A stretch of 64,000 nt of DNA from Escherichia phage Barry. A program made the translations under genes and the position numbers. The stretch lies in the sequence record LR880803, one strand, 5' to 3'. Shown here piece by piece: positions 12,630-64,000 of this stretch. Under the pieces are notes generated by a model. It had not been told where the DNA came from, did not search any database, and saw nothing but the letters and a program-made list of their open reading frames with translations. The stretch's first letter is position 1, and each line of letters opens with the position of its first letter.

Positions 12630-12650
12630 TCAATAACTTACAAAAAACTT

Positions 12651-13447: not shown

Positions 13448-13711
13448 ATGGAAAACGTAGAATTAACCACACTTTTACAAATTGCAACCGACAAAGAAAA
13501 CGTAGCTTTATTTCACCGCATCGAAAGTGATTTGTTCAATGGTGAAATCATCAAAGAGTCTTACGAGGTTGTTGGATTCAAAGATGGTAAAACATTTGGA
13601 TTCTTTGACCTCGAAAAAGGCAACGCTGTTACAAAATATGATGTTTTATCTTGTGAGATTCTTACAAAATACAACGAAAAAAGGCTTGCAACATACGCCA
13701 ATATGCAGTAA
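13448..13711 (+). CDS. hypothetical small protein
   Basis: 87-aa ORF after cassette SD. Confidence 0.45.
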   Translation: MENVELTTLLQIATDKENVALFHRIESDLFNGEIIKESYEVVGFKDGKTFGFFDLEKGNAVTKYDVLSCEILTKYNEKRLATYANMQ

Positions 13712-13777
13712 ATTACTAATCAACGGGAGGCGATAACCTCCCCACTAAATAAAACCCTTAAACTAGGAGATTCAAAA
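13706..13777 (+). repeat. leader cassette family B, copy 6
   Basis: CAGTAAATTACTAATCAACGGGAGGCGATAACCTCCCCACTAAATAAAACCCTTAAACTAGGAGATTCAAAAATG. Confidence 0.7.
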
Positions 13778-14026
13778 ATGGCAACTATCCGCGCTACTGT
13801 TAACGAGTTCGGTTTTTCCTCTCTGGATGTTAAATTTGACATTGCAGGCACTGATAACGCCTTTGAAATGGTGAAAGGTCTTATCAGTCAGACCATCAAA
13901 GACTATAATCCTTCTGATGAGTTCTGGAAAGAAACAAAACAGGAAGTTCTCAAAGAGGGTTATTCTTATCACTATTGGGGTGAAAAAATTGTCTCTCTGT
14001 ACTACGACAAAGAAGGCACTAACTAA
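13778..14026 (+). CDS. hypothetical small protein
   Basis: 82-aa ORF after cassette SD; followed by terminator. Confidence 0.5.
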   Translation: MATIRATVNEFGFSSLDVKFDIAGTDNAFEMVKGLISQTIKDYNPSDEFWKETKQEVLKEGYSYHYWGEKIVSLYYDKEGTN

Positions 14027-14066
14027 ACGCCGCAGCGGGGCTAAATAGCCCCAGATACCTTTATAC

Positions 14067-14088
14067 AGCCCCTCACAGGGGCTTTTTT
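14067..14088 (+). terminator. rho-independent terminator closing the small-gene array
   Basis: AGCCCCT-CACA-GGGGC followed by TTTTTT; a second hairpin GGGGCTAAATAGCCCC lies just upstream. Confidence 0.6.
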
Positions 14089-14092
14089 ACGT

Positions 14093-15708: not shown

Positions 15709-16302
15709 TTAAATCAGTGTTTCCAGAACTGCCTTCAGTGATGACTTGGTTGTCTGATAAAAATGAGTAAATCCATTGTTGTTATCGAATATCTGCATCA
15801 TGATATCATCACCCTTGATTGGGTAAACTCGGATATCATAGTGAAAACCATTAAAGACACAAGAGCCATTACAGAATGCACTAAAGTCATCAACTGAGAT
15901 ATACTCTTCATGTCCTGTGATTTTTATACAAATGCCTTTACTTGGTCTCTTAGGGTTGATATCTTCCATCACAGACATACTCTGTCCACCAAGAGATACC
16001 ATAGTGACCACTTTACGGTTCTTCTGTTTAAAGTACATCTTAACTTTCTGCAAAGTGTCTTCATAGAACGGATAAGACCTTTCTACAAAGATTCCTTCAA
16101 GTGGCTCTTTACCATTTTCAACTTCTCTGTTATGCCGTACTGCAAAGATAATTTGTTCGAACCAGTCAAGATTTTCTTCGGAGAGTGCTTCTCGAATATC
16201 ACTCCAGTCAAGGACTAGGTAGTTACCTTCAACTTCTTTTAAGTTATCTTTTTCCATAGCTATCACACCATTATCGTAAAACTTGGTAGGCTGGTACTGC
16301 AA
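15709..16302 (-). CDS. hypothetical protein
   Basis: 197-aa ORF. Confidence 0.5.
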   Translation of the reverse strand: MQYQPTKFYDNGVIAMEKDNLKEVEGNYLVLDWSDIREALSEENLDWFEQIIFAVRHNREVENGKEPLEGIFVERSYPFYEDTLQKVKMYFKQKNRKVVTMVSLGGQSMSVMEDINPKRPSKGICIKITGHEEYISVDDFSAFCNGSCVFNGFHYDIRVYPIKGDDIMMQIFDNNNGFTHFYQTTKSSLKAVLETLI

Positions 16303-16735
16303 ACTTGTTGCTGTTGTTCTTAATAAGGTCTTCTTCTGTTACTAAGAATGTAATCCCACATAAGTGCGTATAGTGGCTGTCATACTCAAATATTTTAAGT
16401 AAATATTTACCATCATGATAGACAGATTCTACTACACCTTTTGCAACAATCTTTCCAGTCTTGAAATCTTTAAGAGGGTATGTATTACCGACTCTAGGGA
16501 CTGTTTTCATCTCAGGTTCTTTTAGCTTCTCACCAACTTCTACATCACCTAGCAAGTGAGAACTTTCAAAAGCTACATATTGCATATAAGCATCTGAGCA
16601 TTCCCAGATAAAACAATGTACAAGAGCCTTAGCAGCATGTCTTGAACAATTCAACTTATCACAAATCTCTTTGTACATTTCATCTTTAGTTGAGTTGTCA
16701 AGCATTGCTTTTTGAACGACTTCTTTAATTTTCAT
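16271..16735 (-). CDS. hypothetical protein
   Basis: 154-aa ORF. Confidence 0.5.
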   Translation of the reverse strand: MKIKEVVQKAMLDNSTKDEMYKEICDKLNCSRHAAKALVHCFIWECSDAYMQYVAFESSHLLGDVEVGEKLKEPEMKTVPRVGNTYPLKDFKTGKIVAKGVVESVYHDGKYLLKIFEYDSHYTHLCGITFLVTEEDLIKNNSNKFAVPAYQVLR

Positions 16736-16787
16736 TTCGCTACCTTCTAAGCTTCTACAAAGGGGCTATCAAGTAACCCCTAAGCTA

Positions 16788-17012
16788 TTACTCAGACTTT
16801 TCAGTCTTCTTATCGGATTTCTTACTAGTCTTCTTCTCAGCTTTCTGCTCAGGTTCCTTCTCAGAAGTTGCCTTAATAACCATATCAAGAAGCTCTGATA
16901 GGTCACTCTTCAGCAAAGTAACAGGCTGCTCATTGTAGAAGTTTTTGTCAAGATAAACTTTGAACTCTTCTATAGAAGGAAATCCAAAAATTGGTACAGG
17001 TGTCTTAATCAT
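16788..17012 (-). CDS. hypothetical small protein with Lys/Glu-rich tail
   Basis: 74-aa ORF. Confidence 0.4.
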   Translation of the reverse strand: MIKTPVPIFGFPSIEEFKVYLDKNFYNEQPVTLLKSDLSELLDMVIKATSEKEPEQKAEKKTSKKSDKKTEKSE

Positions 17013-17088
17013 TGCTTAGTCTCTCCATAGGCATCTTTTAAGATTGCCTTGTTAATCATTTCAGCGATTGCAAAACGAACACATACAG

Positions 17089-17592
17089 CTATAGTTGTAG
17101 GTTGCATTCTTTACTTACCTCTTCAAGTTTAATCTCCGAGTCCTTAAGTCGTTTCTTATGAACTCTGAATCTTAGTAGTGAGATAATGATACCAGCTAAA
17201 GGAACAGCATACAAGTACCATACATCATATACCTTTGCAGTAATCTGTGTGATAGTTAAATCTTGAGCTATGTAACTGATTGCTGATACGGCTAGTAATG
17301 TTGCTAAGAAGAAAACCAGTATCATAGCAATATTCAGACAACCTCTGGCATGGTATTCATGCTTAATGCACTTATTCTTCTCTTCAACAACCCTGTTGTA
17401 GTCATTTGTAAAGTCTCTGTAGAAAGCTTTCAAGTATTCTTGAGTGTAGCCTTCAAAGCAACCTGTACCGTACCAATAGTCACCACCAAAGTGTGCTATG
17501 ATACCGGTATCCCCATTTGGTTTGGTTACTCTCAAAGAGGTGTGATGACGAGTATCCTGATAATCTATCTTATATCTTTCTTCGTAAATCAT
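17089..17592 (-). CDS. hypothetical membrane protein
   Basis: 167 aa with central hydrophobic stretch MILVFFLATLLAVSAISYIA. Confidence 0.45.
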   Translation of the reverse strand: MIYEERYKIDYQDTRHHTSLRVTKPNGDTGIIAHFGGDYWYGTGCFEGYTQEYLKAFYRDFTNDYNRVVEEKNKCIKHEYHARGCLNIAMILVFFLATLLAVSAISYIAQDLTITQITAKVYDVWYLYAVPLAGIIISLLRFRVHKKRLKDSEIKLEEVSKECNLQL

Positions 17593-17807
17593 TTTCCAAT
17601 CCCTCTCAATCGTTTATTCCACTCAAGGTCAACAAGTCTTTGCAGGACTTTCCCTCTAGGTGTTACACCTTTTAAATCTGCATCGTAGCAACGGTAAAAG
17701 TCACCTTCAGCGTGTTTACCATAGCACTTTCTTATATTCTGACTTCTACGATATTGCTCTAACAGGGACAGTTTGTAGTAATCTTCAACTGTAGTTAGCT
17801 TTTTCAT
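17589..17807 (-). CDS. hypothetical small protein
   Basis: 72-aa ORF, start overlaps the stop of the downstream gene. Confidence 0.4.
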   Translation of the reverse strand: MKKLTTVEDYYKLSLLEQYRRSQNIRKCYGKHAEGDFYRCYDADLKGVTPRGKVLQRLVDLEWNKRLRGIGK

Positions 17808-17890
17808 TCTTTCACCACGAATCCTCTTAAGAAACTAAAAAGGGAACTACCTCTCGATAGCTCCCATCATAGTTAACATTGTATATTTGG

Positions 17891-18472
17891 TCAAGAGTAT
17901 TTTTTAGGCAGTAATGCGCTACGTTTGTTACTCTCTTCACTCAATAGTGCGATAAATTCGTCGCCTTTACCTTTCCACGGGCTGAATGAAGGGATATGTT
18001 CGCGGATAGCCTCAATCACTGTTTTAAGTGCTGTGTTCTTCATCCACCAATCAGAATCTGCTGATGCTACCACGTAGTATCCACCGTCATCAGTTAAAAT
18101 TGGCTCTGAAATACATGGTGAAATCAAAGTGGTGATGATTGAACCGTTGTTCATGTAGTATGTGCGCTTCATAACCTTTTCAAGAAGCTTGTGAAGGTCA
18201 CCAAACAGTGTTACAAGTTCTTTGTGGTCGATGTCTTTTTCGAGGCTTGCTCGGTACTTCAATAGTGCAGCATCAACCTCTCTGTCATTAAACTTGAAAT
18301 ATTGAACTTCATCAACAAGGCAAACACTGATATTGTTGACATTCATAGTCAACTTACAGACTTTTGCAGGAGAATTGATACTTGGTTGAAAAAGTGCAAC
18401 ACAACCTTCAATGTTCCCAAAATGTTGGACTAGTGTTACTTGTGGGGTAATATTCTGTTGCTCTTCGGACAT
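17891..18472 (-). CDS. hypothetical protein
   Basis: 193-aa ORF. Confidence 0.5.
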   Translation of the reverse strand: MSEEQQNITPQVTLVQHFGNIEGCVALFQPSINSPAKVCKLTMNVNNISVCLVDEVQYFKFNDREVDAALLKYRASLEKDIDHKELVTLFGDLHKLLEKVMKRTYYMNNGSIITTLISPCISEPILTDDGGYYVVASADSDWWMKNTALKTVIEAIREHIPSFSPWKGKGDEFIALLSEESNKRSALLPKKYS

Positions 18473-18816
18473 TATAGTTTCCTCATTAAATACTTTTTAA
18501 GTTGTGTGTTAGGTTTCTCAAAAACTTCTATAGAAGATATCTTGACAGATTCACCACGCATACCTGTGTGTTTGAATATATAGTACTCTAACATCCCTAT
18601 ATACTTTGCTGGTAAGTCATGTTTGACATACACCGTTACAGAATCTTCAAATTCAACAACCTTTGTACCATCTTTGTAGTTAAACTCTTTAGGATGGTTG
18701 TAGTTGTCGATGTCGTACATTAAAAAGAGTCTTTTCCGTTGCATATCAAGCTTATTGGTTAAAGACTCTTTGATGTCTGAGAAGTTTTTATACACTATGA
18801 CGTGGAGCTTACTCAT
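18472..18816 (-). CDS. hypothetical protein
   Basis: 114-aa ORF, translationally coupled. Confidence 0.45.
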   Translation of the reverse strand: MSKLHVIVYKNFSDIKESLTNKLDMQRKRLFLMYDIDNYNHPKEFNYKDGTKVVEFEDSVTVYVKHDLPAKYIGMLEYYIFKHTGMRGESVKISSIEVFEKPNTQLKKYLMRKL

Positions 18817-19102
18817 CGTTAAACTCTCTGACGAAGAAGTAGTTGACTTTATTATTACCTACCATAAGGTCAAAGCAGGTATTCTCAAAAGGTTTGTTGT
18901 AGGCATCATATGAAGTATACGTATCAGCTACTTGTTTAGTGTTGAGCTTTTTACTTGATGGATTTAAGAGGCCACCATACAGTTTCTTGATAGCCTCTTC
19001 TACAACAGACCAGATGATTTCGTCAGTAATTTCTTCGTACAGGTCAAGTTCACGCTCTAGTGAGAAGTCACAAATAGGGAAAACAACCTGTACTTTACTC
19101 AT
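18809..19102 (-). CDS. hypothetical protein
   Basis: 97-aa ORF. Confidence 0.45.
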   Translation of the reverse strand: MSKVQVVFPICDFSLERELDLYEEITDEIIWSVVEEAIKKLYGGLLNPSSKKLNTKQVADTYTSYDAYNKPFENTCFDLMVGNNKVNYFFVREFNDE

Positions 19103-19500
19103 TATCGAATAACCTGTGAGACTTGAATTGCTTCAGTTACTGACAAATCACCCACTTTCTCTTCTTTGATAAAAGTGAAGGTGAGTTCAACAGGCTCTTG
19201 CTCTTCTTGCTCAACTGGAACACCGTTAAGCTCATCAAAGATTGATTGAGTTGTCCAGTCTTCTCCACCATCTGGATAGTAGATTGCGTAAAGAGGGAAC
19301 TCTAAATCAAACCAACCAAATACAGGACAACCGTCTTCATCATCTCGTACTCGATGAAGTGTGCTTCCAGACCCTGTAAACTGAAGGAATAAATCTCCGT
19401 TGCACTTGTATATTACTGCGTCGGCAAAACCAATGTCTTCTCGACCATCATGACCAAATGTGTCCACCTTTACTTGGATATCTCTAACATCTTTATTCAT
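19102..19500 (-). CDS. hypothetical protein
   Basis: 132-aa ORF. Confidence 0.45.
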   Translation of the reverse strand: MNKDVRDIQVKVDTFGHDGREDIGFADAVIYKCNGDLFLQFTGSGSTLHRVRDDEDGCPVFGWFDLEFPLYAIYYPDGGEDWTTQSIFDELNGVPVEQEEQEPVELTFTFIKEEKVGDLSVTEAIQVSQVIR

Positions 19501-19891
19501 AAAAACCTCTCTCTGCTTGTTCGATTTTTGCTTTTAGAACTTCACACCGTTCAATGTGATATCTGGCTTCATGCTCATGTGTCGCCAAAGTTCTTTCAAG
19601 AATGGTTTTATAGTAACCTGCAAGTTGCTCTCTTGTCAATGGGTTCTCTGAAATAATATCGAGACCACTTTCACCTAGAGTATTAAACTGTCCATGCTCA
19701 TTTACATGGTAAGCTTCAAACTTGAATAAACCATTATTAGCAGACTCAATAGGTGATAGTTCAACCAACTCAACAGTAAACCTTGTATGTACCCTATCTC
19801 CAACTGTAACAACGTTACTTCCAATGATACGTACAAGCGAGCCGTTACGAGTGTACTTAAAAGTTCCAAAGTCACTAGCCCAAAGCTTCAT
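19493..19891 (-). CDS. hypothetical protein
   Basis: 132-aa ORF. Confidence 0.45.
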   Translation of the reverse strand: MKLWASDFGTFKYTRNGSLVRIIGSNVVTVGDRVHTRFTVELVELSPIESANNGLFKFEAYHVNEHGQFNTLGESGLDIISENPLTREQLAGYYKTILERTLATHEHEARYHIERCEVLKAKIEQAERGFYE

Positions 19892-19907
19892 AGTTTTCTC
19901 CTTAGAA

Positions 19908-19932
19908 AATAAAAAAGGCTCCCGAAGGAGCC
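19908..19932 (-). terminator. rho-independent terminator on - strand
   Basis: GGCTCC-CGAA-GGAGCC with an A-run on + strand, i.e. T-run 3' of the hairpin on - strand. Confidence 0.5.
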
Positions 19933-19942
19933 TATGAAGATA

Positions 19943-20407
19943 TTACTTTGGATATACACTGTCAAGATAAATGTCAGCTTCCATTCTACGTCTGTTTTTC
20001 AGACCGTTTGAAGTGACCTTCTTACCTTTGACTGTAACCTTGTTCCACCACTGCATAGCTTCTGCACAACCTACCTTATTACCGGCATTGTGGCGCTTGA
20101 TAAATGTAGAATCCTGCATAGCTGTGATACCGATGTTGTATGTTTCACTTACAAGTGCATCGAACTCATTCTGAGAAGTTGGAACCTTGATGGCTTTGTT
20201 CACTGCTGCAACGAACTTTTCAACATCTGCGAGAAGATACTGTTCAGCTTGTTCAGCAGTAATTTTCATACCCATCTTAACAGGTTTTCCGTCAATACGG
20301 ATTGTCCCATACCCAATTGTTGGGATTCCGGCAGAGTCTTCGTAAGCCTCTAACTTCAGACCTTCGAAGAACTTAATAGCATCTAAACCTTTTCTTGAGA
20401 GTTGCAT
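19943..20407 (-). CDS. endolysin, T4-lysozyme-like (GH24 muramidase)
   Basis: N-terminal EGLKLEAYEDSAGIPTIGYGT matches the catalytic Glu / (Y)xDxxGxxTIGYG signature of phage lysozymes. Confidence 0.8.
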   Translation of the reverse strand: MQLSRKGLDAIKFFEGLKLEAYEDSAGIPTIGYGTIRIDGKPVKMGMKITAEQAEQYLLADVEKFVAAVNKAIKVPTSQNEFDALVSETYNIGITAMQDSTFIKRHNAGNKVGCAEAMQWWNKVTVKGKKVTSNGLKNRRRMEADIYLDSVYPK

Positions 20408-21291
20408 TATGCCTCCCCTGCTGGATTAACTGTAACTGTTGCTGCATTAGATGTTACAGAGCCACCTGCACCAGTAACTACACAGGTGTAGCTTCCTGAA
20501 TCAGCAGCGGTTGCTCCTTCTTTGGTGTAGGTTGCAGTAGTTGCATCGAGGATGTCTTCCTCATCTTTCTTCCACTGATAACCTGTTGCACCTGTTGCCA
20601 CAACATTCAACGTTAAGGTCTCACCTTCATTGATTTCTTGATTGGTTGGCTGTTGAGTGATGACAGGAAGTGCATTCACAGTCACTGTTGCTGCATCTGA
20701 GGTAACACTTGTTCCACCCTCTCCAGATACAACACAAGTGTATGAACCAGCATCAGAAGGTGCTACTGACTGTTTTGTGTAAGTTGCAGAATTGGCACTA
20801 GGGATGTCCTCACCATCCTTCTTCCACTGATATCCAGTGGCGTTAGTTGCTAGAATGCTTAGAGTAAGTGTGCCACCCTCATTGACTGTTTGACCTGTCG
20901 GTTGCTGAGTAATTGCTGGTGGCTTAATAGCATCCTTCAACTTAGCATTCAACATTGAGAACGGCTTAACTCTTGCCAACCATTCACAGTAAATTGTGTC
21001 AACATCTTTACCATTGATGATTGCATACTGCAAATCCATGAAGAAATCAGCAGTTCTCATCTGTGCACCAACACTGTAAAGCAACTCATCACTAAATGGA
21101 ACTTTGTAGTCTGGTTTGTAGTCAAACTCCTCAACTTCTGCAATATCAGCTTCAGGCCAATACGAACTATAGGTAAGCGGTAAAATAGCCTCTTGATATG
21201 CTCTAAAATCATATCTCTTACCAGCTTTTACGTTTGCAATGAAGCCCTTCACAAACTCTTTGAAGTCTGGGTAAGTCTTTGCTTTAATCAT
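20407..21291 (-). CDS. protein with two tandem Ig-like domains; N-terminal domain paralogous to the upstream gene
   Basis: two ~90-aa repeats (ITQQPT.QTVNEG.TLTL...ATGYQWKKD.EDI...ATYTK...GSYTCVV.G) typical of Ig-like folds. Confidence 0.55.
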   Translation of the reverse strand: MIKAKTYPDFKEFVKGFIANVKAGKRYDFRAYQEAILPLTYSSYWPEADIAEVEEFDYKPDYKVPFSDELLYSVGAQMRTADFFMDLQYAIINGKDVDTIYCEWLARVKPFSMLNAKLKDAIKPPAITQQPTGQTVNEGGTLTLSILATNATGYQWKKDGEDIPSANSATYTKQSVAPSDAGSYTCVVSGEGGTSVTSDAATVTVNALPVITQQPTNQEINEGETLTLNVVATGATGYQWKKDEEDILDATTATYTKEGATAADSGSYTCVVTGAGGSVTSNAATVTVNPAGEA

Positions 21292-24949: not shown

Positions 24950-25026
24950 CTCTGTTTAGCTCAGATTGGTAGAGCGTTCCGTTTGGGGCGGTAAGGCCGG
25001 AGGTTCAAGTCCTCCAACAGAGACCA
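24950..25026 (+). tRNA. tRNA, anticodon read as TGG (Pro)
   Basis: acceptor CTCTGTT/AACAGAG, T-arm GGAGG-TTCAAGT-CCTCC, CCA encoded. Confidence 0.6.
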
Positions 25027-25033
25027 AATTAAT

Positions 25034-25111
25034 GTTCCAGTAGACAAAATGGTATAGTCACCACTCTTTCAAAGTGGATATCTGAGGGTTCAAATCCCTT
25101 CTGGAACGCCA
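25034..25111 (+). tRNA. tRNA, anticodon TTC (Glu)
   Basis: acceptor GTTCCAG/CTGGAAC, anticodon stem CCACT/AGTGG loop CTTTCAA, CCA encoded. Confidence 0.65.
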
Positions 25112-25203
25112 GTTTTGACAGAAGACCAATTACAGCAAACTTAATCTTATTCATCTGAAGGTAAATCGGACAAAGAAGAGATTTGGTCTGGTCATTAAGA
25201 ATT

Positions 25204-25279
25204 GCGGGTATAGAGAAAGGGCGTCTCACATGTCTCATTAGCATGGTATCGGCAGGTTCGACTCCTGCACCCGCCTCCA
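25204..25279 (+). tRNA. tRNA-like, anticodon CAT (Met/Ile2 type); boundaries approximate
   Basis: T-arm GCAGG-TTCGACT-CCTGC, anticodon stem CATGT/GCATG loop CTCATTA; acceptor pairing imperfect. Confidence 0.45.
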
Positions 25280-25357
25280 ATTTTGCAGAAGACCGTATTC
25301 AGCAACAAAATACTTTTTTGCGGATAAAAGAAAAAACACGGTCTGGCAATGTATTAA

Positions 25358-25434
25358 GGTTAGGAAGCACATAAGGTATGTGCGGTCGCCTGTTAAGCGA
25401 ATGGCACAGGGTTCGAATCCCTGACTAACCGCCA
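25358..25434 (+). tRNA. tRNA, anticodon GTT (Asn)
   Basis: acceptor GGTTAGG/ACTAACC, T-arm CAGGG-TTCGAAT-CCCTG, CCA encoded. Confidence 0.6.
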
Positions 25435-25442
25435 AATTAAAT

Positions 25443-25530
25443 GTGTCGTTATCCCGTAGATGGTAGCGGTGGGGACTGTAAATCCCTTGTCATTGAGACT
25501 CGGTAGGTTCGACTCCTACACGGCACACCA
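25443..25530 (+). tRNA. class II tRNA (long variable arm), anticodon GTA (Tyr)
   Basis: 88 nt; acceptor GTGTCGT/ACGGCAC; T-arm GTAGG-TTCGACT-CCTAC; loop CTGTAAA. Confidence 0.65.
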
Positions 25531-25535
25531 ATAAA

Positions 25536-25612
25536 GGCTATGTAGTTTAACTGGAGAAAATACTCCCCTGTCACGGGAGATGATGTGAGTTCAAGTCTCA
25601 TCGTAGCCGCCA
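25536..25612 (+). tRNA. tRNA, anticodon GTC (Asp)
   Basis: acceptor GGCTATG/CGTAGCC, anticodon stem CTCCC/GGGAG loop CTGTCAC. Confidence 0.65.
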
Positions 25613-25634
25613 ATTTTGAGAGGGCTATTTAGCC

Positions 25635-25672
25635 CCTCCCTTAAAGAGTTCTTACGAGTATTCTTTAAGGGA
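25635..25672 (+). ncRNA. 12-bp perfect hairpin between tRNAs (possible processing signal or small RNA)
   Basis: CTCCCTTAAAGA-gttcttacgagtat-TCTTTAAGGGAG. Confidence 0.35.
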
Positions 25673-26042
25673 GCAGAAGACCAAATACAGCAAGAATGTA
25701 TGAAATTTCAAGCCAATTTAATTTTGAAAATTTAAAACTTGGTCTGGCTCAACAAATTTACAGAAGGCCGTTTACAGCAAAACTTAAACAATCTATTTCT
25801 CCGGTACAGAAAAGGCGAAGGTTCGATTCCTTCACTCGGCAGATGTCGAGTTGGTGTAATGGTAGCACTTAAGATGATAAACAACGGTCTGGTAATTACC
25901 TTTGTAGATAAGTTATTAAGCTTACTTGTGAGTATGCGACCACAAAGGGTGAATGGGTAAATTCTAGATTTAAACCCAAAAAAGGCACATCGCTACAGAC
26001 CTTAAGCAAGTCTGGGTAGCTTATCTACAAAGATAATTTAAT

Positions 26043-26118
26043 GGAAGTGTAGCAGAATGGTGATGCGGCAGACTTTTAATCTGACAGGCGATGGGTTCGA
26101 ATCCCTCCACTTCTACCA
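26043..26118 (+). tRNA. tRNA, anticodon TTT (Lys); weak T-stem
   Basis: acceptor GGAAGTG/CACTTCT, loop CTTTTAA, T-loop TTCGAAT, CCA encoded. Confidence 0.5.
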
Positions 26119-26122
26119 ATAT

Positions 26123-26199
26123 GGTTCAGTCGCAGATAAGGTAATGCAAGGGTCTCATAAGCCCTATGAATGTGGGTTCGATTCCCATCTGAACCTCCA
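26123..26199 (+). tRNA. tRNA, anticodon CAT (Met/fMet/Ile2 type)
   Basis: acceptor GGTTCAG/CTGAACC, loop CTCATAA, T-loop TTCGATT. Confidence 0.6.
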
Positions 26200-26200
26200 A

Positions 26201-26276
26201 GCTGGTATAGTTAAGAAGGTTATAACACTCCCCTGATAAGGGAACATCGGTGGTTCGATTCCACCTACCAGTACCA
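26201..26276 (+). tRNA. tRNA, anticodon GAT (Ile)
   Basis: acceptor GCTGGTA/TACCAGT, T-arm GGTGG-TTCGATT-CCACC, loop CTGATAA. Confidence 0.6.
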
Positions 26277-26290
26277 ATTTCAATAAAGTT

Positions 26291-26319
26291 GTTGACATTG
26301 AGATGTGACTACTTTATAG
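26291..26319 (+). promoter_or_regulatory. internal sigma70-like promoter in the tRNA island
   Basis: TTGACA - 17 bp - TATAGT. Confidence 0.5.
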
Positions 26320-26522
26320 TAACCTTAGTTTTCGTTGCGTAGCGTCTATTTTGCAAATTTAAAATAAATGCAAACGACAATGTTTTTCTGGCAGTAGCTT
26401 GATAGGCTAAACACCAGTGAGGTCTTCCAATCCCTCATCAAAGAATTTGGCGTACTCGCCCACGGTATGATTAATAAGGTGGGCATCTTTAAGGGCTTTC
26501 TAAGAGAGTCTTTAAAGATAAT

Positions 26523-26599
26523 GCACCCTTAGTTCAATTGGATAGAGCAACGGTCTTCTAAATCGTTAGTTACAGGTTCGAATCCTGTAGGGTGTACCA
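26523..26599 (+). tRNA. tRNA, anticodon TCT (Arg)
   Basis: acceptor GCACCCT/AGGGTGT, D-arm GTTCAATTGGATAGAGC, T-arm ACAGG-TTCGAAT-CCTGT. Confidence 0.65.
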
Positions 26600-26742
26600 A
26601 ATAGTTAGCAGATTACTTAGACGGCCTTAGCGGGTCTTCCTGTAGGGAGGTGGTCTGTATCTCATGTTTTCCAGAACATGTAAATAATCTGAGAAGAAGC
26701 TTGACAGTGTTGAGATAATACGGTAAGCTTCGAATTATAGTA

Positions 26743-26820
26743 TGGGACGATGTTAAGACTCTAAGGCATGAGCAACGGCCTCCAAAACCGTTTCAAAGGG
26801 GTTCAACTCCTCCGTCCCAT
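26743..26820 (+). tRNA. tRNA, anticodon CCA (Trp); CCA not encoded
   Basis: acceptor TGGGACG/CGTCCCA, loop CTCCAAA, T-loop TTCAACT. Confidence 0.55.
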
Positions 26821-26837
26821 GCTAAAGATTGTTTCGG

Positions 26838-26924
26838 AGAGAGTGGCGGTCAACGGAGACCAACCAGCCTTGAAAACTGGTGCTGCTGGAAACGGTACGG
26901 GTTCAACTCCTGCACTCTCTGCCA
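26838..26924 (+). tRNA. class II tRNA, anticodon TGA (Ser)
   Basis: 87 nt; acceptor AGAGAGT/ACTCTCT; loop CTTGAAA; long variable arm. Confidence 0.6.
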
Positions 26925-26948
26925 AAATAATTTTTAAGGTGGTGATTA

Positions 26949-27289
26949 TGAAGAAAGGTTCAGTAGGTGAAATTGCTACACAATTAGCTTTCCTCAAAAG
27001 AGGTTATGAAGTATATTCACCAGCTACAGATAATGCAAAGTATGACTTTCTAGTTCACAAAGATGGTTTGATTGAAACTGTTGAGGTAAAATCAACATCA
27101 GTCAAAAGAGGTGAACTTTGGAGAGTGCAACTGAAAAGAGTTCGTTCTAACAAGAATGAAAATAGAATAATGAATTTTGATAACTCTCAAGTTGATTACT
27201 TAGCTGTTTACATTGAACCACTTGATAAAGTCGTCATCTACAAAGCTAAAGATGTCAAGTCTAAGACTGAACTTAGCTTAAAGATTTAA
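26949..27289 (+). CDS. small PD-(D/E)xK-type nuclease-like protein embedded in the tRNA island (Hjc/resolvase-like motif order)
   Basis: ATG at 26949 behind strong SD AAGGTGGTGA; GEIATQLAFLKRGYEV ... YDFLV ... VEVKS matches the E...D...E-x-K arrangement; track ORF 26768..27289 upstream part overlaps tRNAs and is not coding. Confidence 0.45.
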
Positions 27290-27530
27290 AGCCAAGCTTC
27301 ATTCGGATGTCGCTTTGGTATCCCTCGTGTATTGTCGTACACTGTCAAAGCACCTAGTAGGTGTCACGGAGAAGAGATAATATCAAGCTCTCCAAAGGTT
27401 CTAGTCACCGGATTAAACAAGACTATGCAAAGACCTATTTAGGTCTTTTTAGAGGGCTTCTAAGGTTATTAGTCGCTTGTTGTGGAACCTTGTTGCTCAG
27501 GTTCTTAGAAGTTCTCTAAAAAGATTTAAT

Positions 27531-27607
27531 GCACCTATAGCCCAACTGGTAGAGGCAGCAGACTTAGAATCTGCTCAGTGTGAGTTCGAATCTCTCTAGG
27601 TGTACCA
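27531..27607 (+). tRNA. tRNA, anticodon read as TAG, short variable arm (identity uncertain)
   Basis: acceptor GCACCTA/TAGGTGT, anticodon stem GCAGA/TCTGC loop CTTAGAA, T-loop TTCGAAT. Confidence 0.5.
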
Positions 27608-27614
27608 AATTAAT

Positions 27615-27690
27615 GCAGGTGTAGCAAAATGGTTATGCGGCTGACTCTTAATCAGTAAGACGATGGGTTCAATTCCCTCCACCTGTACCA
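27615..27690 (+). tRNA. tRNA, anticodon read as CTT (Lys), paralog of 26043..26118
   Basis: acceptor GCAGGTG/CACCTGT, loop CTCTTAA. Confidence 0.5.
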
Positions 27691-27696
27691 AACAAT

Positions 27697-27772
27697 GGGG
27701 TCATAGTTTATATGGTTAAAATTCGAGTTTTGCAAACTTGGGAACTGAGTTCAATTCTCAGTGACTCCACCA
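27697..27772 (+). tRNA. tRNA, anticodon tentatively TGC (Ala)
   Basis: acceptor GGGGTCA/TGACTCC, T-arm CTGAG-TTCAATT-CTCAG. Confidence 0.5.
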
Positions 27773-27778
27773 ATTAGT

Positions 27779-27853
27779 GCATCCATAGTTTAAACGGGAA
27801 AATTACAGTCTTCCAAACTGAGGTTGAGGGTTCGATTCCCTCTGGATGCTCCA
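27779..27853 (+). tRNA. tRNA, anticodon TCC (Gly)
   Basis: acceptor GCATCCA/TGGATGC, T-arm GAGGG-TTCGATT-CCCTC, loop CTTCCAA. Confidence 0.6.
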
Positions 27854-27860
27854 AATTAAT

Positions 27861-27935
27861 GCTCCTATCGTATAATTGGTTATTACGGTTGCCTTGTAAG
27901 CAACTTATCAGGGTTCGAGTCCTTGTGGGAGCACC
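27861..27935 (+). tRNA. tRNA, anticodon TGT (Thr)
   Basis: acceptor GCTCCTA/TGGGAGC, anticodon stem GTTGC/GCAAC loop CTTGTAA. Confidence 0.65.
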
Positions 27936-27939
27936 AATT

Positions 27940-28028
27940 CAGAGGTCAAGTGAAAGACCGCTTTGAGTCAACTGAAGACCGTAACAAATTCCACGAAGTT
28001 GAGTTAGCGGCACAACTTCAGACCTCTT
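27940..28028 (+). ncRNA. structured inter-tRNA spacer (candidate small stable RNA or processing element)
   Basis: long-range complement CAGAGGTC ... GACCTCT enclosing inner hairpin GAAGTTG...CAACTTC. Confidence 0.3.
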
Positions 28029-28032
28029 TCAT

Positions 28033-28107
28033 ACTCGCTTAGTTTATATGGTAAAACATCACCCTTACAAGATGAAGAAAAAGGTTCAAGTCCTTTAGTG
28101 AGTACCA
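28033..28107 (+). tRNA. tRNA, anticodon TAC (Val)
   Basis: acceptor ACTCGCT/AGTGAGT, D-stem GTTT/AAAC, T-arm AAAGG-TTCAAGT-CCTTT, loop CTTACAA. Confidence 0.55.
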
Positions 28108-28108
28108 T

Positions 28109-28186
28109 GTTCCAGTATCCCAATTGGCAGAGGATGCAAGCTCAAACCTTGTATTAGTGACGGTTCGAATCCGTCTTGGAACACCA
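28109..28186 (+). tRNA. tRNA, anticodon read as CAA, short variable arm (identity uncertain)
   Basis: acceptor GTTCCAG/TTGGAAC, T-arm GACGG-TTCGAAT-CCGTC. Confidence 0.5.
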
Positions 28187-28191
28187 ATTTT

Positions 28192-28267
28192 GCAGGATTA
28201 GTTCAAATGGATAGAGCAACAGTCTACGAAGCTGTTAATAGGGGTTCGAATCCCTTATCCTGCGCCA
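28192..28267 (+). tRNA. tRNA, anticodon ACG (Arg)
   Basis: acceptor GCAGGAT/ATCCTGC, D-arm GTTCAAATGGATAGAGC, loop CTACGAA. Confidence 0.65.
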
Positions 28268-28286
28268 ATTTAAAGAGGCTATTTAG

Positions 28287-28844
28287 ATGAGATATTTGAA
28301 GTATGCTTCATGGATTTTCTTAGCTTTGTTAGAGCCATTTGCAGCAATCTTAGCAGTTATCTTAGCACCTTTTGTAGTTCCATTCTACAGTGAGAAGAAA
28401 GGACACTTACCTTTCGGGTTCAGATGGATGGAGACATATGACAACCCAATTGATGGTGATGAAGGTCACGTTAAAAGATGGGCTAATATTAGATGGATTG
28501 GTAAACTAGGTGTCTACATGCAAAGAGTCGGATGGCTCTGGAGAAACAAAGCTTATAACTTCTCTTACCATGTATTAGGAAGAGATGTAAGAGATGTTAC
28601 TAAGTGGAAAGGTAATATCAACGTAAGTTCTGACCCCGAAGATAATCAGACAGGTTATCTCCTAATGTGGAACAGTAATGCTTGGGGATTATTCGCTTTT
28701 ATCCCATCAATTAAAATCTTTGGTAAACAATTTTACTGGAGAATTTATATTGGATGGAAACTAAAAAGTGTTGTCCCAGAAGAAAGAGCATTCTCAAGGG
28801 AAAGAGTTATGTTGGCATTCTTTATTCATCCACTGAGAAAGTAA
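28287..28844 (+). CDS. hypothetical Trp-rich membrane protein embedded in the tRNA island
   Basis: 185 aa; SD AAAGAGG; N-terminal hydrophobic segment FLALLEPFAAILAVILAPFVVPF. Confidence 0.45.
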   Translation: MRYLKYASWIFLALLEPFAAILAVILAPFVVPFYSEKKGHLPFGFRWMETYDNPIDGDEGHVKRWANIRWIGKLGVYMQRVGWLWRNKAYNFSYHVLGRDVRDVTKWKGNINVSSDPEDNQTGYLLMWNSNAWGLFAFIPSIKIFGKQFYWRIYIGWKLKSVVPEERAFSRERVMLAFFIHPLRK

Positions 28845-28852
28845 AGATTTAA

Positions 28853-28928
28853 AGGGGATTAGTTTACAAGGTTAAAACCTCGGTCTTTGAAATCGAAGAA
28901 GTTGGTTCAATTCCAACATCCCCCGCCA
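28853..28928 (+). tRNA. tRNA, anticodon TTG (Gln); 1:72 mismatch
   Basis: T-arm GTTGG-TTCAATT-CCAAC, D-stem GTTT/AAAC, loop CTTTGAA. Confidence 0.55.
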
Positions 28929-28930
28929 AT

Positions 28931-29009
28931 GCTCCATTACTCCAATTGGCAGAGAGGCCAGACTTAAAATCTGTGTTATGTATCGGTTCGAATCCGATAT
29001 GGAGTACCA
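28931..29009 (+). tRNA. tRNA, anticodon read as TAA (identity uncertain)
   Basis: acceptor GCTCCAT/ATGGAGT, T-arm ATCGG-TTCGAAT-CCGAT, loop CTTAAAA. Confidence 0.5.
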
Positions 29010-29014
29010 AATTT

Positions 29015-29090
29015 AGCGGTATAGCATAACTGGCAATGCAGCAGCCTCTGAAGCTGTCCTATTAAGGTTCAAATCCTTATGCCGCTGCCA
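29015..29090 (+). tRNA. tRNA, anticodon CTG (Gln)
   Basis: acceptor AGCGGTA/TGCCGCT, D-stem GCAT/ATGC, loop CTCTGAA. Confidence 0.55.
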
Positions 29091-29121
29091 CTTCTAAGGA
29101 TTCTTGCGAGAGTCCTTAAAT

Positions 29122-29197
29122 GTGGCCTTATCATAAACGGTAATGACCCATGCTGTGAACATGGTCTATACGGGTTCAAATCCCGTAGGTCACCCCA
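29122..29197 (+). tRNA. tRNA, anticodon GTG (His)
   Basis: acceptor GTGGCCT/AGGTCAC, anticodon stem CCATG/CATGG loop CTGTGAA, T-arm ACGGG-TTCAAAT-CCCGT. Confidence 0.6.
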
Positions 29198-29203
29198 ATT
29201 TAT

Positions 29204-29279
29204 AGTCCAAGTAGCTTATATGGTTAAAGCGCGTGTCTGAAAAACATGAGAAGAGGGTTCAAATCCCACTGGACTACCA
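29204..29279 (+). tRNA. tRNA, anticodon GAA (Phe)
   Basis: D-stem GCTT/AAGC, loop CTGAAAA, T-loop TTCAAAT, CCA encoded; boundaries approximate. Confidence 0.55.
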
Positions 29280-29296
29280 ATTTCAAAGGTGCTTAA

Positions 29297-30030
29297 TGAA
29301 AGAGATGACAGAACAAGGTAAGGAGATTTTTAATCTCTTAAAAACTGGTAAAGGGTTCTCTAACCCGCTTATTACTGGTGCAGCAGTTCTCGGTGGAACC
29401 GTAGCTGCTTCTACATCACTTGTAAGCTCTATTAGTTCTGTAACAGACCCTACAATGAAGGAGAAACTTGTTGCTGCTGGACTTACAACAGTCCTTCTAA
29501 ACAGCTTTACAACAAGCCTTACAAGCACTACAGCAACTACTAAAACTCTGACAGACTACGGTCAAAAATCTATTGATGAGTTTTCATCACGTATGCAGGT
29601 AGCAAAGGGGTATTCCAATGTTATGGGTGCAGCAGGAGAACAAGTTGGTTGTACACCATTCAGTGGTATCATGGGTGTTGCTACAGAGTATGGTCAAAAA
29701 GCTATTGACATGATGAACAGTACACTAGATAGTGTTAATGGTGTGTTAAGTGACTTACAAGATGCTATTGATAAGGGTCTTGATACTGTTTCTGATTTAG
29801 CTAACCAAGCTGTCAGTAAGATTAATGAAGGTATTTCAAAGATTACAGCTTATGCAGATGAAGTTGTGCAGATGATTGAAGAAGAAGCTGCCCTTATTGC
29901 AGAGTACCTTAAAACGAATATCAATGGGTTCTTAGCAGGTATCTTACCAGACTGGTTTGACGATGCTTGTAAAACTGGTGTGATTGACACTATTGCAACA
30001 CCAGAAATGAAGAGCGCATTACAGAAATAA
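29297..30030 (+). CDS. hypothetical Ser/Thr/Ala-rich protein
   Basis: ATG at 29297 (MKEMTEQG...); track ORF start 29233 lies inside the preceding tRNA. Confidence 0.45.
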
Positions 30031-30031
30031 T

Positions 30032-30124
30032 GGAAGATTAACCCTAAAAGGTAAGGGAGCAGTTTGCTAAACTGCCAGTAGCTGAGAAATCGGTGTACCA
30101 GTTCAAGTCTGGTATCTTCCTCCA
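30032..30124 (+). tRNA. class II tRNA, anticodon GCT (Ser)
   Basis: 93 nt; acceptor GGAAGAT/ATCTTCC; anticodon stem GCAGT/ACTGC loop TTGCTAA; T-arm ACCAG-TTCAAGT-CTGGT. Confidence 0.65.
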
Positions 30125-30128
30125 ATTT

Positions 30129-30204
30129 GAATCCGTGACAGAAATGGATATGTGCCTGTCTGCAAAACAGGTTTATAAGGGTTCGAGTCCCTTCGGATTC
30201 TCCA
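30129..30204 (+). tRNA. tRNA, anticodon GCA (Cys)
   Basis: acceptor GAATCCG/CGGATTC, anticodon stem CCTGT/ACAGG loop CTGCAAA, T-arm AAGGG-TTCGAGT-CCCTT. Confidence 0.65.
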
Positions 30205-61483: not shown

Positions 61484-61640
61484 TAAGAATATGTGCAGAC
61501 CTTAAAGAATCATGATTAAAACCTTTTACGAACTTACTAGGCATCACTACAATAAGCATCTCCTGAATCAACTCTGGAGTATAACAATTGTTGTGAAGTT
61601 GCTGAATAACGTCTGCAAGTGTCATTTTTGATGTCTCCAA
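61413..61640 (-). CDS. hypothetical small protein
   Basis: 75-aa ORF. Confidence 0.3.
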   Translation of the reverse strand: METSKMTLADVIQQLHNNCYTPELIQEMLIVVMPSKFVKGFNHDSLRSAHILIVDGKIARDRTGVLKGERININF

Positions 61641-61831
61641 TACTCAATATCAATAAGTTCTTGTGCAATGCTTTTTAGATTACCTTTCAAGAAAACCTTC
61701 TCAGAACCTGAAAGAGATGAATTGTCAATTAACCTGTTCATTCTCTCAAACAACTTCTGCTTACGGTTCTTGATAGTTTCCTTTGAAGCACCTTTCATCA
61801 TCGCTGCATGGGTTCTTCCACGGTGGCTCAT
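61622..61831 (-). CDS. hypothetical small basic protein
   Basis: 69-aa ORF. Confidence 0.35.
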   Translation of the reverse strand: MSHRGRTHAAMMKGASKETIKNRKQKLFERMNRLIDNSSLSGSEKVFLKGNLKSIAQELIDIEYWRHQK

Positions 61832-61892
61832 AAGCCCTCCTATATAAGATATAGTATAAGGTACTCTTCCCTGAGCACCTTGTCAATACTAA

Positions 61893-62452
61893 TCAGTGTA
61901 CCTCATACCAGCTTTTACCAACCTTACCAGTACCTGTAACAAGTGTTTCTTTCTTAAGACCTAAGTTCTTAGAAGCTTGTCCATAATACCAGTCAGTAAC
62001 TGCCTTCACCTCTGCCGTCATACTTTCTGGGCATTCCCAACTTGTCTCGTCGTGATAGGAGCACAATAAACGAGCACCTATAGCTGGTTTACGACCGTTC
62101 AACTTCATCAAACCTTCGTCAATCATACGACGGCAAGCAAGGTTAATTGCTTCATTCTGAACCTGCGCCTCACTACCCATAAGTGTGTAATTCAATAACT
62201 TATGTGGAGATTTACACCATAACCACGCTCCAGCGACCTGAATGTACCCACCCTTAGCGATTGCAGCACTCTTGCCGAAAACCTCTTCTAATGCCTTCTT
62301 AGTGGCCTTAAAATCGGCTTCTAAGTTATCAAGTAGTTTCTTAATCTTTGGTAGACGCATATAGTAGGTCTGCTTAGTCAATGCACCTTCCTCTGTAGAA
62401 GCTGCCTTAATGGTTTTGGCAAACTTCTCATCACCTGCACCGAACAATACAT
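61893..62452 (-). CDS. family A DNA polymerase, 3' exon (second half of motif B through motif C)
   Basis: begins (V)LFGAGDEKFAKT, the T7-type continuation of motif B; contains motif C YHDE. Confidence 0.7.
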
Positions 62453-63258
62453 CTGGTCAATACACTCGCAAGGTGTACCAGTTCTCTTATGAACTTCTCC
62501 GCATTTCTACGGAGTGTCGGACTATATCACGTAGTAGTAATACTACCGTTGCACTTGGGAATGGTCATTAGCTTACCACCCTACTCTACTCAGTTCATAC
62601 ATTAAGTATGCTTTTCGATAGTCTCTGAACGTTTCTCTGTTAGGAACTCTAAAATACTATTATTTACTAAGGTATGCAATTGCTCTCTTCATGTTCTCTA
62701 TACTATCTGAGAACAGCCCAAGACCTCTGTTACAGTTGTGACACAGCATACCTCTTACCTGTCCTGTTTTGTGGTCATGGTCAACAACCAGCTTGGCTTT
62801 ATGTCTTGAACCATCCATGATAAAACCTTCACCACCGCAGATTTGACACTTGTGACCACACTTACTTAGTAACTCTTCGACCTCTTCTCTTTCTAAGCCG
62901 TAAGTCCTTAAGTAATAGTTCTTTACCCTTCCCTTTTCTCCACAAGCAGAACTGCAATACGTCTGTCTTGCTGTTCTAGGTGTAAACTGGTTATTGCAAC
63001 TTGGACATATTTTCTCTATGACACGACTTGCTGCTCTTCTGTCTACTTCAAGAACGCAGTTTCTACAACGTTTTTGATTGTACTGATATGGCTTAAACTC
63101 TTCGCCACATCTGGAACAAACTCTTTCTTTATAACCTGCCATTGTCTCTCTCCCATTTCTACTATAGGAGTCCTAACAGAGACTTCGCTGCTGATTACCA
63201 TATCTTTTAAGACTTAGGCTTCCAGCAATTCACAACGTTTTACATGCGCCACTGACGC
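62453..63258 (-). mobile_element. putative group I intron in the DNA polymerase gene, carrying an HNH endonuclease ORF; splice sites approximate
   Basis: motif B split between ...RKKAKNGIY (upstream) and LFGAGDEK (downstream); upstream frame hits a stop 14 codons after IY; 800-bp insert with free-standing ORF. Confidence 0.6.
62660..63142 (-). CDS. HNH homing endonuclease (intron-encoded)
   Basis: HNH core VVDHDHKTGQVRGMLCHNCNRGLG plus N-terminal Cys-rich zinc-binding repeats. Confidence 0.8.
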   Translation of the reverse strand: MAGYKERVCSRCGEEFKPYQYNQKRCRNCVLEVDRRAASRVIEKICPSCNNQFTPRTARQTYCSSACGEKGRVKNYYLRTYGLEREEVEELLSKCGHKCQICGGEGFIMDGSRHKAKLVVDHDHKTGQVRGMLCHNCNRGLGLFSDSIENMKRAIAYLSK

Positions 63259-64000
63259 ATAGATACCATTCTTAGCCTTCTTACGGCCTTTAGTTATCTC
63301 GTGAAGGAGTTCCTCATCCTGTGTCTCTCTACAACGGATAATATCTTCTTCTTTGTTCAATGCAAAATAGATACTGTTAAGTGTATGCGCATCAGTACCT
63401 GTGTAGACTTCATACAAATCATTATCAGCATCGTAACGACAATATTTATCAGCCTCTGGATTTAGGTACTTATCAAGATGCTTGCAGTAGTATCGTCCAT
63501 CATCCTGTTTAGTGAACTCTACAAACTCTTTACCTTCAGTTACCGCTTTGGTGAAGTCTTTATCACCCATAAAGTTACACAGTAAAACAAGCTGTGCAGA
63601 GTTCTGGTCAACTGAAACGATATTAGTCCCTTCCTCACAAATCCACACCTCCCTCATAGGTGCTCCATAGACAGCAGCACCAGACGGTACGTTTACAATA
63701 CCATATTGTGTCATACGTCCAGTTGAAGTACCAAACACCATTGCACCAGCACTAAGGCGACCATCTGGACGAATCTGGTTCAACCAACCTTTTTCATCAT
63801 CCTTTGAGTTCTCAATAGTTCTGCGTCGGTGCATCAAAGTATAGTACTTAGCAATCTTCTGTCCAAGTTCACCTTCAATCGTATCATAAGATGATTCAGT
63901 AAGTTTTGGTGAAGTACGGATTAAGCAAGGCTCAAGCAAATCTGTGTACTTCTTCACAGACCAGTTATGCTCAATGTACTGTACACCTTCATGTTCAACA
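63259..64000 (-). CDS. family A DNA polymerase, 5' exon (partial; continues beyond window end)
   Basis: frame is open to the window edge; DQNSAQLVLL resembles motif A; ends with first half of motif B RKKAKNGIY. Confidence 0.65.

Follow-up and report, generated by a model that had tools for sequence, protein, structure and literature searches.

An 805-nucleotide putative group I intron with a DHHRN-type endonuclease reading frame in a family A DNA polymerase gene of a Felixounavirus phage

We analyzed a 64,000-nucleotide (nt) stretch of DNA from Escherichia phage Barry (record LR880803; hereafter the window), a Felixounavirus phage whose family A DNA polymerase gene appears to be interrupted by an 805-nt intron within the codons of the O-helix (motif B). 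With a probability of ~0.92, as judged from the sequence, this element is a mobile IA2-like group I intron that carries a DHHRN endonuclease in its P6a helix. Self-splicing of the RNA is inferred, as are homing by the enzyme and the specificity with which it cleaves.

RESULTS

The polymerase locus and its splice junction

Region 61800-64000 of the window was 100% identical to Escherichia phage vB_Eco_Tribble (OX016465.1, Ounavirinae, Felixounavirus), whose record annotates two 'Putative DNA polymerase' coding sequences (CDSs) with an 'endonuclease' between them. The corresponding open reading frames (ORFs) all lie on the minus strand. The ORF at 63214..63957 ends in GRKKAKNGIY followed by 14 extra codons (ASVAHVKRCELLEA) and a stop, as a preliminary description of this DNA had reported. 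The ORF at 61893..62447 has a TTG start, reads FGAGDEKFAKT, and includes YHDE, and the ORF at 62660..63142 encodes 160 amino acids with the residues DHDH...CHNCN. The polymerase gene starts outside the window; according to the Tribble record, exon 1 extends ~1.4 kilobases past position 64000.

The junction was placed by comparison with uninterrupted alleles. The intron-less Mooglevirus 3HA14 reads AAT GGT ATC TAT GCT TTG TTG TTC GGT GCA GGT, and Felix O1 reads AAT GGC ATC TAC GCC CTG TTA TTT GGA. Both alleles encode NGIYALLFGAG, and the junction region reads IYALLFGAGDEK. A single 805-nt excision is compatible with three rules at once, namely a terminal U on exon 1, a terminal G on the insert, and the protein sequence ALLF. 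It ligates the exons as GCG T/TA TTG TTC (slash, junction), where T63255 is the last base of exon 1 and T62449 the first base of exon 2, and the ligated junction expected in silico in the spliced RNA is ...TATGCGT/TATTGTTC. Identical boundaries were found in 9 of the 9 intron-carrying phages examined. Excisions shifted by one base were rejected because they yield AVL or ASLF, not the conserved ALLF. An in-frame alternative, ATC T/AT GTA (IYVLF), has the terminal U and G, but the resulting protein is one residue shorter than every intron-less homologue, and it was also discarded.

The preliminary description had estimated the insert at ~800 base pairs (bp), close to the measured length. Its 3' splice site (near 62445-62453) encloses the one placed here, between 62450 and 62449, but its 5' splice site (63256-63259) has to be moved one base outside that range, to between 63255 and 63254. 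The downstream exon does contain motif C (YHDE) as proposed, but it does not begin with (V)LFGAG, since exon 2 supplies -LLFGAG. An intein had been dismissed in the same description, and we likewise give no credence to an intein or any other protein-level insertion: nothing but the position in a conserved motif speaks for one, the frame of exon 1 stops 14 codons into the insert, and the internal ORF lies in a different frame with its own start.

The full-length gene was then spliced in silico, with the part of exon 1 beyond the window taken from the Tribble record. Joining 2143 and 557 nt gave a 2700-nt gene encoding an 899-amino acid polymerase, residues 1-899 of which could be aligned gaplessly to residues 8-906 of the Felix O1 polymerase (94.3% identity). 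The spliced C-terminal region scored 57.5 bits against Pfam DNA_pol_A (cut-off, 34.3), whereas the separate polymerase ORFs scored 20.2 and 27.2 bits, both under the cut-off. Because the pieces fall below the cut-off and the joined product lies above it, the split-gene pattern is not due to chance. The polymerase exons were under purifying selection, with a ratio of nonsynonymous to synonymous substitution (dN/dS) of 0.03-0.07. As had been predicted, the joined exons rebuild a T7-type motif B; the restored motif is KNGIYALLFGAGDEK, with KNGIYA/LLFGAGDEK across the junction.

In the alignment to T7 DNA polymerase, GRKKAKNGIYALLFGAGDEK corresponds to T517-RDNAKTFIYGFLYGAGDEK, and the junction falls between the first and second bases of the codon matching T7 F528. 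The junction is therefore located within the O-helix, between the equivalents of Y526 and Y530. By the standard T7-to-Pol I correspondence, we take the insertion site to be at approximately residue 764 of Escherichia coli Pol I. The published positions of polymerase introns are 674 (SPO1, SP82, Bastille, and Pf-WMP3), 676 (phiL7), and 881 (phiI and W31) (PMC3428280).

Family membership of the intron

When the window was searched with the Rfam group I intron model RF00028, two collinear partial matches were detected on either side of the internal ORF, at 63114-63227 (23.8 bits; P4-P6) and at 62497-62671 (15.2 bits; P7-P9). The gathering cut-off of this model is 50 bits, and a scan of the whole window at the gathering threshold returned 23 tRNAs only and no group I intron. 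The score of the window is below the threshold because the 483-nt ORF in P6a splits the model match. Orthologous inserts without an ORF, which are 268 nt long in BPSELC-1 and BPS17L1 and 311 nt long in EC106, scored 64.3, 63.8, and 62.9 bits (BPSELC-1, BPS17L1, and EC106, respectively) over model positions 1-253. Outside the deleted segment, these copies were 95-99% identical to the core in the window. Since the window's own intron does not reach the gathering score, its family membership rests on homology to the ORF-less copies. The Rfam check suggested in the preliminary description thus had a divided outcome, with the window itself below threshold and the ORF-less orthologues above 50 bits across the full model. 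The splice-site rules, the restoration of the frame, and the matches of the ORF-less copies to RF00028 all agree with the group I intron proposed there.

A different explanation is a genuinely split gene, in which a nuclease cassette was inserted and the polymerase fragments are translated apart and assemble without RNA splicing. In T4-like phages, some genes split by homing-endonuclease insertions reportedly work as separately translated fragments; at the present locus, GenBank annotates two 'DNA polymerase' CDSs and an 'endonuclease', and a TTG codon offers a possible start for exon 2. We give this explanation hardly any chance. The break lies inside the O-helix, exon 2 has neither an in-frame ATG nor an evident ribosome-binding site, and the inserts of the ORF-less orthologues match the group I model. 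Since the 268-nt inserts without an ORF still split the gene, the insert is not merely a nuclease cassette, and the noncoding sequence on either side of the ORF is better conserved than any other part of the locus, unlike a passive spacer.

Secondary structure of the ribozyme

The structure derived for the group I intron contains 89 proposed pairs, all of them canonical. P1 is formed by 63261-63254 with 63250-63243 (8 bp), and at the splice site U63255, the last base of exon 1, pairs with G63249, a pair that was invariant in nine phages. For P10, 62449-62445 (UAUUG) can pair with 63250-63254 (CAGUG) over 5 bp, including two wobble pairs. P6a consists of 15 bp, and the ORF sits in its loop. P7 (62625-62619 with 62524-62519) forms a pseudoknot with P3. 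P7.1 (62610-62606 with 62600-62596) and P7.2 (62581-62575 with 62565-62557) were fully paired across the nine phages and were recovered by an unconstrained fold. The structure has no P2, and the loop of P9 is GAAA.

Across the nine phages, 776 of 776 cells were paired, compared with 29-48% when the partners were slid, although this control is generous because the structure was derived from the window sequence itself. Compensatory changes were observed at two pairs, one in P6a (U-A to C-G) and one in P8 (U-A, U-G, and C-G). Most paired positions never vary, and covariation support is therefore thin but entirely consistent. An unconstrained fold of the ORF-deleted core recovered P1, P3-P6a, P7.1, P7.2, P8, and P9 (z=-3.4). 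Because P7.1 and P7.2 are located between P7 and the 3' strand of P3, a criterion used previously for Pf-WMP3 (PMC3428280), we classify the intron as IA2-like on the basis of its helices.

The 3HA14 allele was also compared with the ligated exons of the window. In the 39 nt compared around the junction, only two differences were found, both synonymous (GCG to GCT and TTA to TTG). They correspond to positions 63256 and 62448 of the window, flank the insertion site, and affect bases that pair in P1 and P10 of intron-carrying alleles. Such differences might arise if the ribozyme constrains the wobble bases of the exons, or if the target site has become resistant to the endonuclease. In addition, the frame of exon 1 continues 42 nt into the intron, and its UAA stop (63214-63216) lies within P5. 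Unterminated ribosomes would cover P1-P5, and translation and ribozyme folding may therefore interfere with each other. Interference of this kind has been discussed for T4 introns.

The intron-encoded endonuclease

The ORF in the P6a loop matched Pfam Endonuclease_7 (PF02945) with 71.4 bits (cut-off, 23.6) at residues 79-159 and PHROG 307, 'endonuclease VII', with E=8e-43. In the PDB ranking, the restriction enzyme Hpy99I was the best match (E=2.5e-7), followed by T4 endonuclease VII. According to Fang et al. (2018, PMC6083498), the DHHRN signature consists of CX2-4C, D-H-x-H, R, and CX2C-N (D40, H41, H43, R54, and N62 in T4 Endo VII), and the family is set apart from HNH by the missing central Asn. 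The C-terminal Endo VII/DHHRN domain of the ORF contains C99xxC102, D121 H122 D123 H124, R130, and C134xxC137 N138, and the DHHRN residues are all kept in the diverged orthologues of LinBro, BPS15Q2, and JH2. Endonuclease_7 was the only Pfam model reported for the ORF at E<=0.01, with no HNH model among the matches. The preliminary description had called the enzyme HNH; its DHDH...CHNCN motif is present and the name is appropriate at the level of the His-Me finger superfamily, but the Pfam assignment to Endonuclease_7 takes the ORF out of the classical HNH family. The ORF encodes an Endonuclease VII/DHHRN His-Me finger enzyme, a putative homing endonuclease.

The N-terminal 78 residues contain two Cys4-like arrangements (C9/C12/C26/C29 and C46/C49/C63/C67), which could plausibly bind DNA. 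The Shine-Dalgarno-like element upstream of the ATG was kept as GGAGAGAGACAATGG in the diverged lineage. Against the diverged orthologues, dN/dS of the ORF was 0.04-0.07, similar to that of polymerase exon 2, and the ORF is under purifying selection.

Alternatively, the ORF could encode a phage Holliday-junction resolvase, that is, a true Endonuclease VII for packaging or repair, that happens to reside in the intron. Pfam and PHROG both use the name 'endonuclease VII', and a comparative genomics paper reads a recombination/repair function (PMC8300805). Viable phages without the ORF or without the whole intron are known, and the ORF is therefore dispensable and not an essential resolvase; many sister phages are in this state, and the ORF of VpaE1 is frameshifted. 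Hpy99I ranks first among the solved structures, before T4 Endo VII. The catalytic motif lies near the C terminus (residues 79-159 of 160), which is the arrangement of the endonuclease clade and not of the resolvase clade, and the orthologues of JH2, EC6, and FSL SP-010 are placed in the endonuclease clade (both from Fang et al., PMC6083498). We therefore see little chance that the ORF encodes a resolvase and favor the putative homing endonuclease.

Conservation across lineages

The window was compared with the diverged lineage of LinBro, BPS15Q2, JH2, and VpaE1 at the nucleotide level (Table 1). The noncoding RNA is the most constrained part of the locus. Strong constraint on the ribozyme is expected, since the phage would need splicing to make its polymerase. 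Synonymous sites were saturated in the ORF and in exon 2 (synonymous divergence, dS, >1.8 or not computable). Recent horizontal transfer was rejected as the sole cause of the ribozyme conservation, because the intervening ORF has diverged as far as the exons have and because the 10 exon bases beside the junction already differ between the lineages.

These comparisons also bear on whether the element is a decayed group I intron without self-splicing activity, so that a protein cofactor is needed or the polymerase is a pseudogene in this isolate. The sub-threshold Rfam score of the window would fit such decay, but the ORF in the P6a loop accounts for it, since the deletion derivatives score above the threshold. 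Furthermore, the core helices are all intact and are 94-100% conserved across diverged viable isolates, and the dN/dS values of the polymerase exons given above indicate purifying selection. Decay is, in our judgment, very improbable.

Table 1. Features of the polymerase locus in the window, with nucleotide identity to the LinBro, BPS15Q2, JH2, and VpaE1 lineage
Feature	Position	Strand	Identity	Description
Polymerase exon 1, 3' part	63255..64000	-	84-86% (exon 1)	Last codons AAT GGT ATC TAT GCG T; gapless alignment with Felix O1 after splicing
Predicted group I intron, 805 nt	62450..63254	-		CAGUGG...CCAGAUG, terminal G at 62450; missing from the 3HA14 and Felix O1 alleles
Polymerase exon 2	61893..62449	-	75-77%	TA TTG TTC GGT GCA GGT GAT GAG (LLFGAGDEK), motif C YHDE, stop codon
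Ribozyme 5' half	63168..63261	-	93.5-95.4%	P1, P3 5' strand, P4, P5, 5' strands of P6 and P6a
Ribozyme 3' half	62450..62649	-	94.8-100%	P6a/P6 3' strands, P7, P7.1, P7.2, P3 3' strand, P8, P9, P9.1, P9.2, terminal G
Putative endonuclease ORF, 160 amino acids, 483 nt	62660..63142	-	72-75%	Pfam PF02945, PHROG 307, and PDB matches
Shine-Dalgarno-like GGGAGAG	63148..63154	-		In the P6a loop, ~7 nt before the ATG

Distribution of intron alleles

Approximately 260 phage records matched the polymerase region, 40 of which covered the query, ORF included, to at least 80%; with the ORF-less intron as the query, 96 records covered at least 80% (all counts include RefSeq/GenBank duplicates). The approximate split is ~40 records with intron and ORF, ~55 with an intron without ORF, and ~160 without the intron, among them Felix O1, 3HA14, and many others. 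The ORF is intact in Tribble, GEC_vB_B1, LinBro, BPS15Q2, and JH2 and is broken by a 22-nt deletion in VpaE1, and the 268- and 311-nt inserts represent two independent deletion derivatives. This mix of empty, ORF-containing, ORF-deleted, and frameshifted alleles fits the cycle of a homing intron.

A second, independent mobile-nuclease polymorphism is present at the polymerase gene. In Felix O1 (20288-20791) and many relatives, a free-standing 'HNH homing endonuclease' gene abuts or overlaps the polymerase stop codon, and the same gene was found in the loci of two other relatives, at 2071-2583 and 2608-3120. The window lacks this gene; a 69-amino acid ORF (61622..61831) follows 61 nt past the polymerase stop.

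Among the records with a Felixounavirus polymerase, GU169904.1 ('Staphylococcus phage SA1'), MG065668.1 ('Campylobacter phage A126'), and one Listeria-labelled record were 88-89% identical to the window, which suggests contamination or mislabelling. Elsewhere in the window, the 23 tRNA genes detected at the Rfam gathering level are located at 24950-30201 on the plus strand, where the Tribble record annotates 26. The offset between the window and OX016465.1 was 9736 at positions 25000 and 40000 and 9749 at the polymerase locus, and 40-mers sampled from positions 1-20000 of the window had no exact match in positions 1-50000 of OX016465.1. The window is therefore permuted relative to the Tribble record or not identical to it throughout.

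Comparison with known introns and endonucleases

In Fang et al. (2018, Mob DNA 9:27, PMC6083498), the ORFs with an Endo VII motif of the Escherichia phages JH2 and EC6 and the Salmonella phage FSL SP-010 are listed as 'intron-encoded' members of the DHHRN family. These introns share with that of the window the gene, the insertion site, the ribozyme, and a homologous ORF. EC6 was 97% identical to the window across the locus, whereas in JH2 the ribozyme was 94-96% identical and the ORF 79% identical at the amino acid level. No essential difference separates them from the window, which represents another isolate. Because its orthologues are listed as intron-encoded, the element is of a known kind and has been mentioned, in passing, in this genus. 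The text consulted of that paper gives no splice sites, structure, or insertion position for these intron ORFs and no test of their splicing or cleavage, and in the literature searched, no splice junction, structure, insertion position, allele series, or experimental test was found for the Felixounavirus intron. The Felix O1 genome paper of 2010 states that introns are absent (PMC3185647), which is correct for Felix O1 because its polymerase gene is uninterrupted; for the same reason, Felix O1 was rejected as an intron carrier. A comparative Felixounavirus study of 2021 mentions no intron and reads the endonuclease VII gene of FSL SP-107 as integration/repair-related (PMC8300805), and the SPJ41 paper reports 'two introns' from a noncoding RNA scan, with locations not given (PMC9951933).

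The founding characterized DHHRN homing endonuclease is F-CphI of cyanophage S-PM2, the essential residues of which were tested by mutagenesis (PMC6083498). The enzyme of the window resembles it in the C-terminal CX2C...DHDH...R...CX2C-N arrangement, and all the essential residues of F-CphI are present. By contrast, F-CphI is free-standing beside the psbA intron ('collaborative homing'), whereas the enzyme of the window is encoded inside the P6a loop and bears two additional Cys4-like modules at its N terminus.

IA2 introns with HNH-type endonucleases are known in the family A polymerase genes of SPO1 (I-HmuI), SP82, Bastille (I-BasI), Pf-WMP3 (I-PfoP3I), phiI/W31 (I-TslI), and phiL7 (PMC3428280). 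Like the intron of the window, they reside in this host gene family, belong to the P7.1/P7.2 class, and occupy a site in a highly conserved catalytic motif; that of Pf-WMP3 also lacks P2, and those of phiI, W31, and Pf-WMP3 also carry the ORF in P6a. They differ in position, lying at Pol I residues 674, 676, and 881 and not in motif B, and in their enzymes, which are of the I-HmuI-type HNH class and not Endo VII/DHHRN.

The motif B site is not unique to the window, since the polymerase of Escherichia phage KarlSchell_Bas89 (PQ850613), whose CDS is annotated as a join, is also split in motif B. The predicted junction in Bas89, AKTFIYAFN/YGAGDAK, falls in the codon matching T7 Y530; relative to the site in the window, it is shifted downstream by 6 nt (two codons) and has the same phase. 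The Bas89 ribozyme shares sequence blocks such as P9.1 with that of the window, but its internal ORF is different. The Bas89 intron (2448-3237) gave two full-model RF00028 matches, of 34.7 bits (2448-2745) and 48.1 bits (2930-3187), around an 'endonuclease' ORF, and could represent a single core split by the ORF or a pair of introns, nested or adjacent.

Outside Ounavirinae, the closest relative of the ribozyme was found in Gamaleyavirus vB_EcoP-ZQ2 and Shigella phage Moonfish, with 72-79% identity to the core in the window. This intron differs in its host gene, which encodes an RNA polymerase subunit, in its HNH ORF, and in the position of that ORF. The ZQ2 intron scored 91.8 bits on RF00028 (locus 460-703), and the Moonfish copy is located around 2501-2617. 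The records of these two N4-like phages (Schitoviridae) contain split 'RNA polymerase' CDSs with no intron annotated. In the crAss-like phage cr3_1 (2563-3569), the polymerase is annotated as a pair of CDSs flanking a 714-nt ORF, and a segment of 129 nt matched the Felixounavirus intron core at 74%; this is probably another unannotated intron.

DISCUSSION

The features described above suggest the following course of events. After transcription, the RNA would fold so that the P6a stem loops out the 483-nt ORF and the two ribozyme halves are brought together. An external guanosine would attack after U63255, which is paired with G63249 in P1, and the freed exon 1 would then attack after the terminal G62450, with P10 aligning exon 2. 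Ligation to GCG T/TA TTG would restore the O-helix of motif B (KNGIYALLFGAGDEK) and the 899-amino acid polymerase. The looped-out ORF would be translated from its own ribosome-binding site into an Endonuclease VII-type (DHHRN) enzyme. In co-infecting relatives that lack the intron, this enzyme may cut the polymerase allele close to the insertion site, and recombinational repair would copy the intron in (homing).

Several observations weigh against this interpretation. The window's own intron is under the Rfam gathering score (23.8 and 15.2 bits), and covariation support is thin, with two compensatory pairs. A diverged ORF between near-invariant ribozyme halves is not expected from a recent transfer of the whole intron. 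RNA or biochemical data were found for no Felixounavirus copy in the literature searched. Finally, a promoter and terminator scan of 61700-63400 gave two promoter-like sites, compared with 3.4 expected, and no terminators, with none above chance in the intron.

More speculatively, the 94-100% identity of the ribozyme halves between lineages with saturated synonymous divergence in exons and ORF might point to something beyond ordinary purifying selection on a ribozyme. The ribozyme core may be homogenized apart from the ORF by gene conversion, which could take place between co-infecting phages, or the RNA may have an added role, for example in the timing of polymerase production. Taken together with Bas89, motif B might be a recurrent landing site. 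We consider this extended reading unlikely; if it is true, the O-helix coding sequence would be a recurrent landing site for distinct intron/endonuclease lineages across unrelated coliphages.

The element is genuine but belongs to an ordinary class of selfish elements, and it represents already known biology that is poorly annotated in GenBank; our understanding of group I introns in general is unchanged by these findings. Since the ORF splits the model match, the intron escapes a standard Rfam scan at the gathering threshold. Dozens of Felixounavirus genomes that have been proposed for biocontrol were deposited with the polymerase as two CDSs and an 'endonuclease', and with the exact junction, their records could be corrected to one joined 899-amino acid polymerase. 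The natural alleles, comprising an empty site, two deletions that removed the ORF, one frameshifted ORF, and two lineages of the ORF that are 20% diverged, form a convenient system for the homing cycle and also suit the study of target specificity in DHHRN-type endonucleases.

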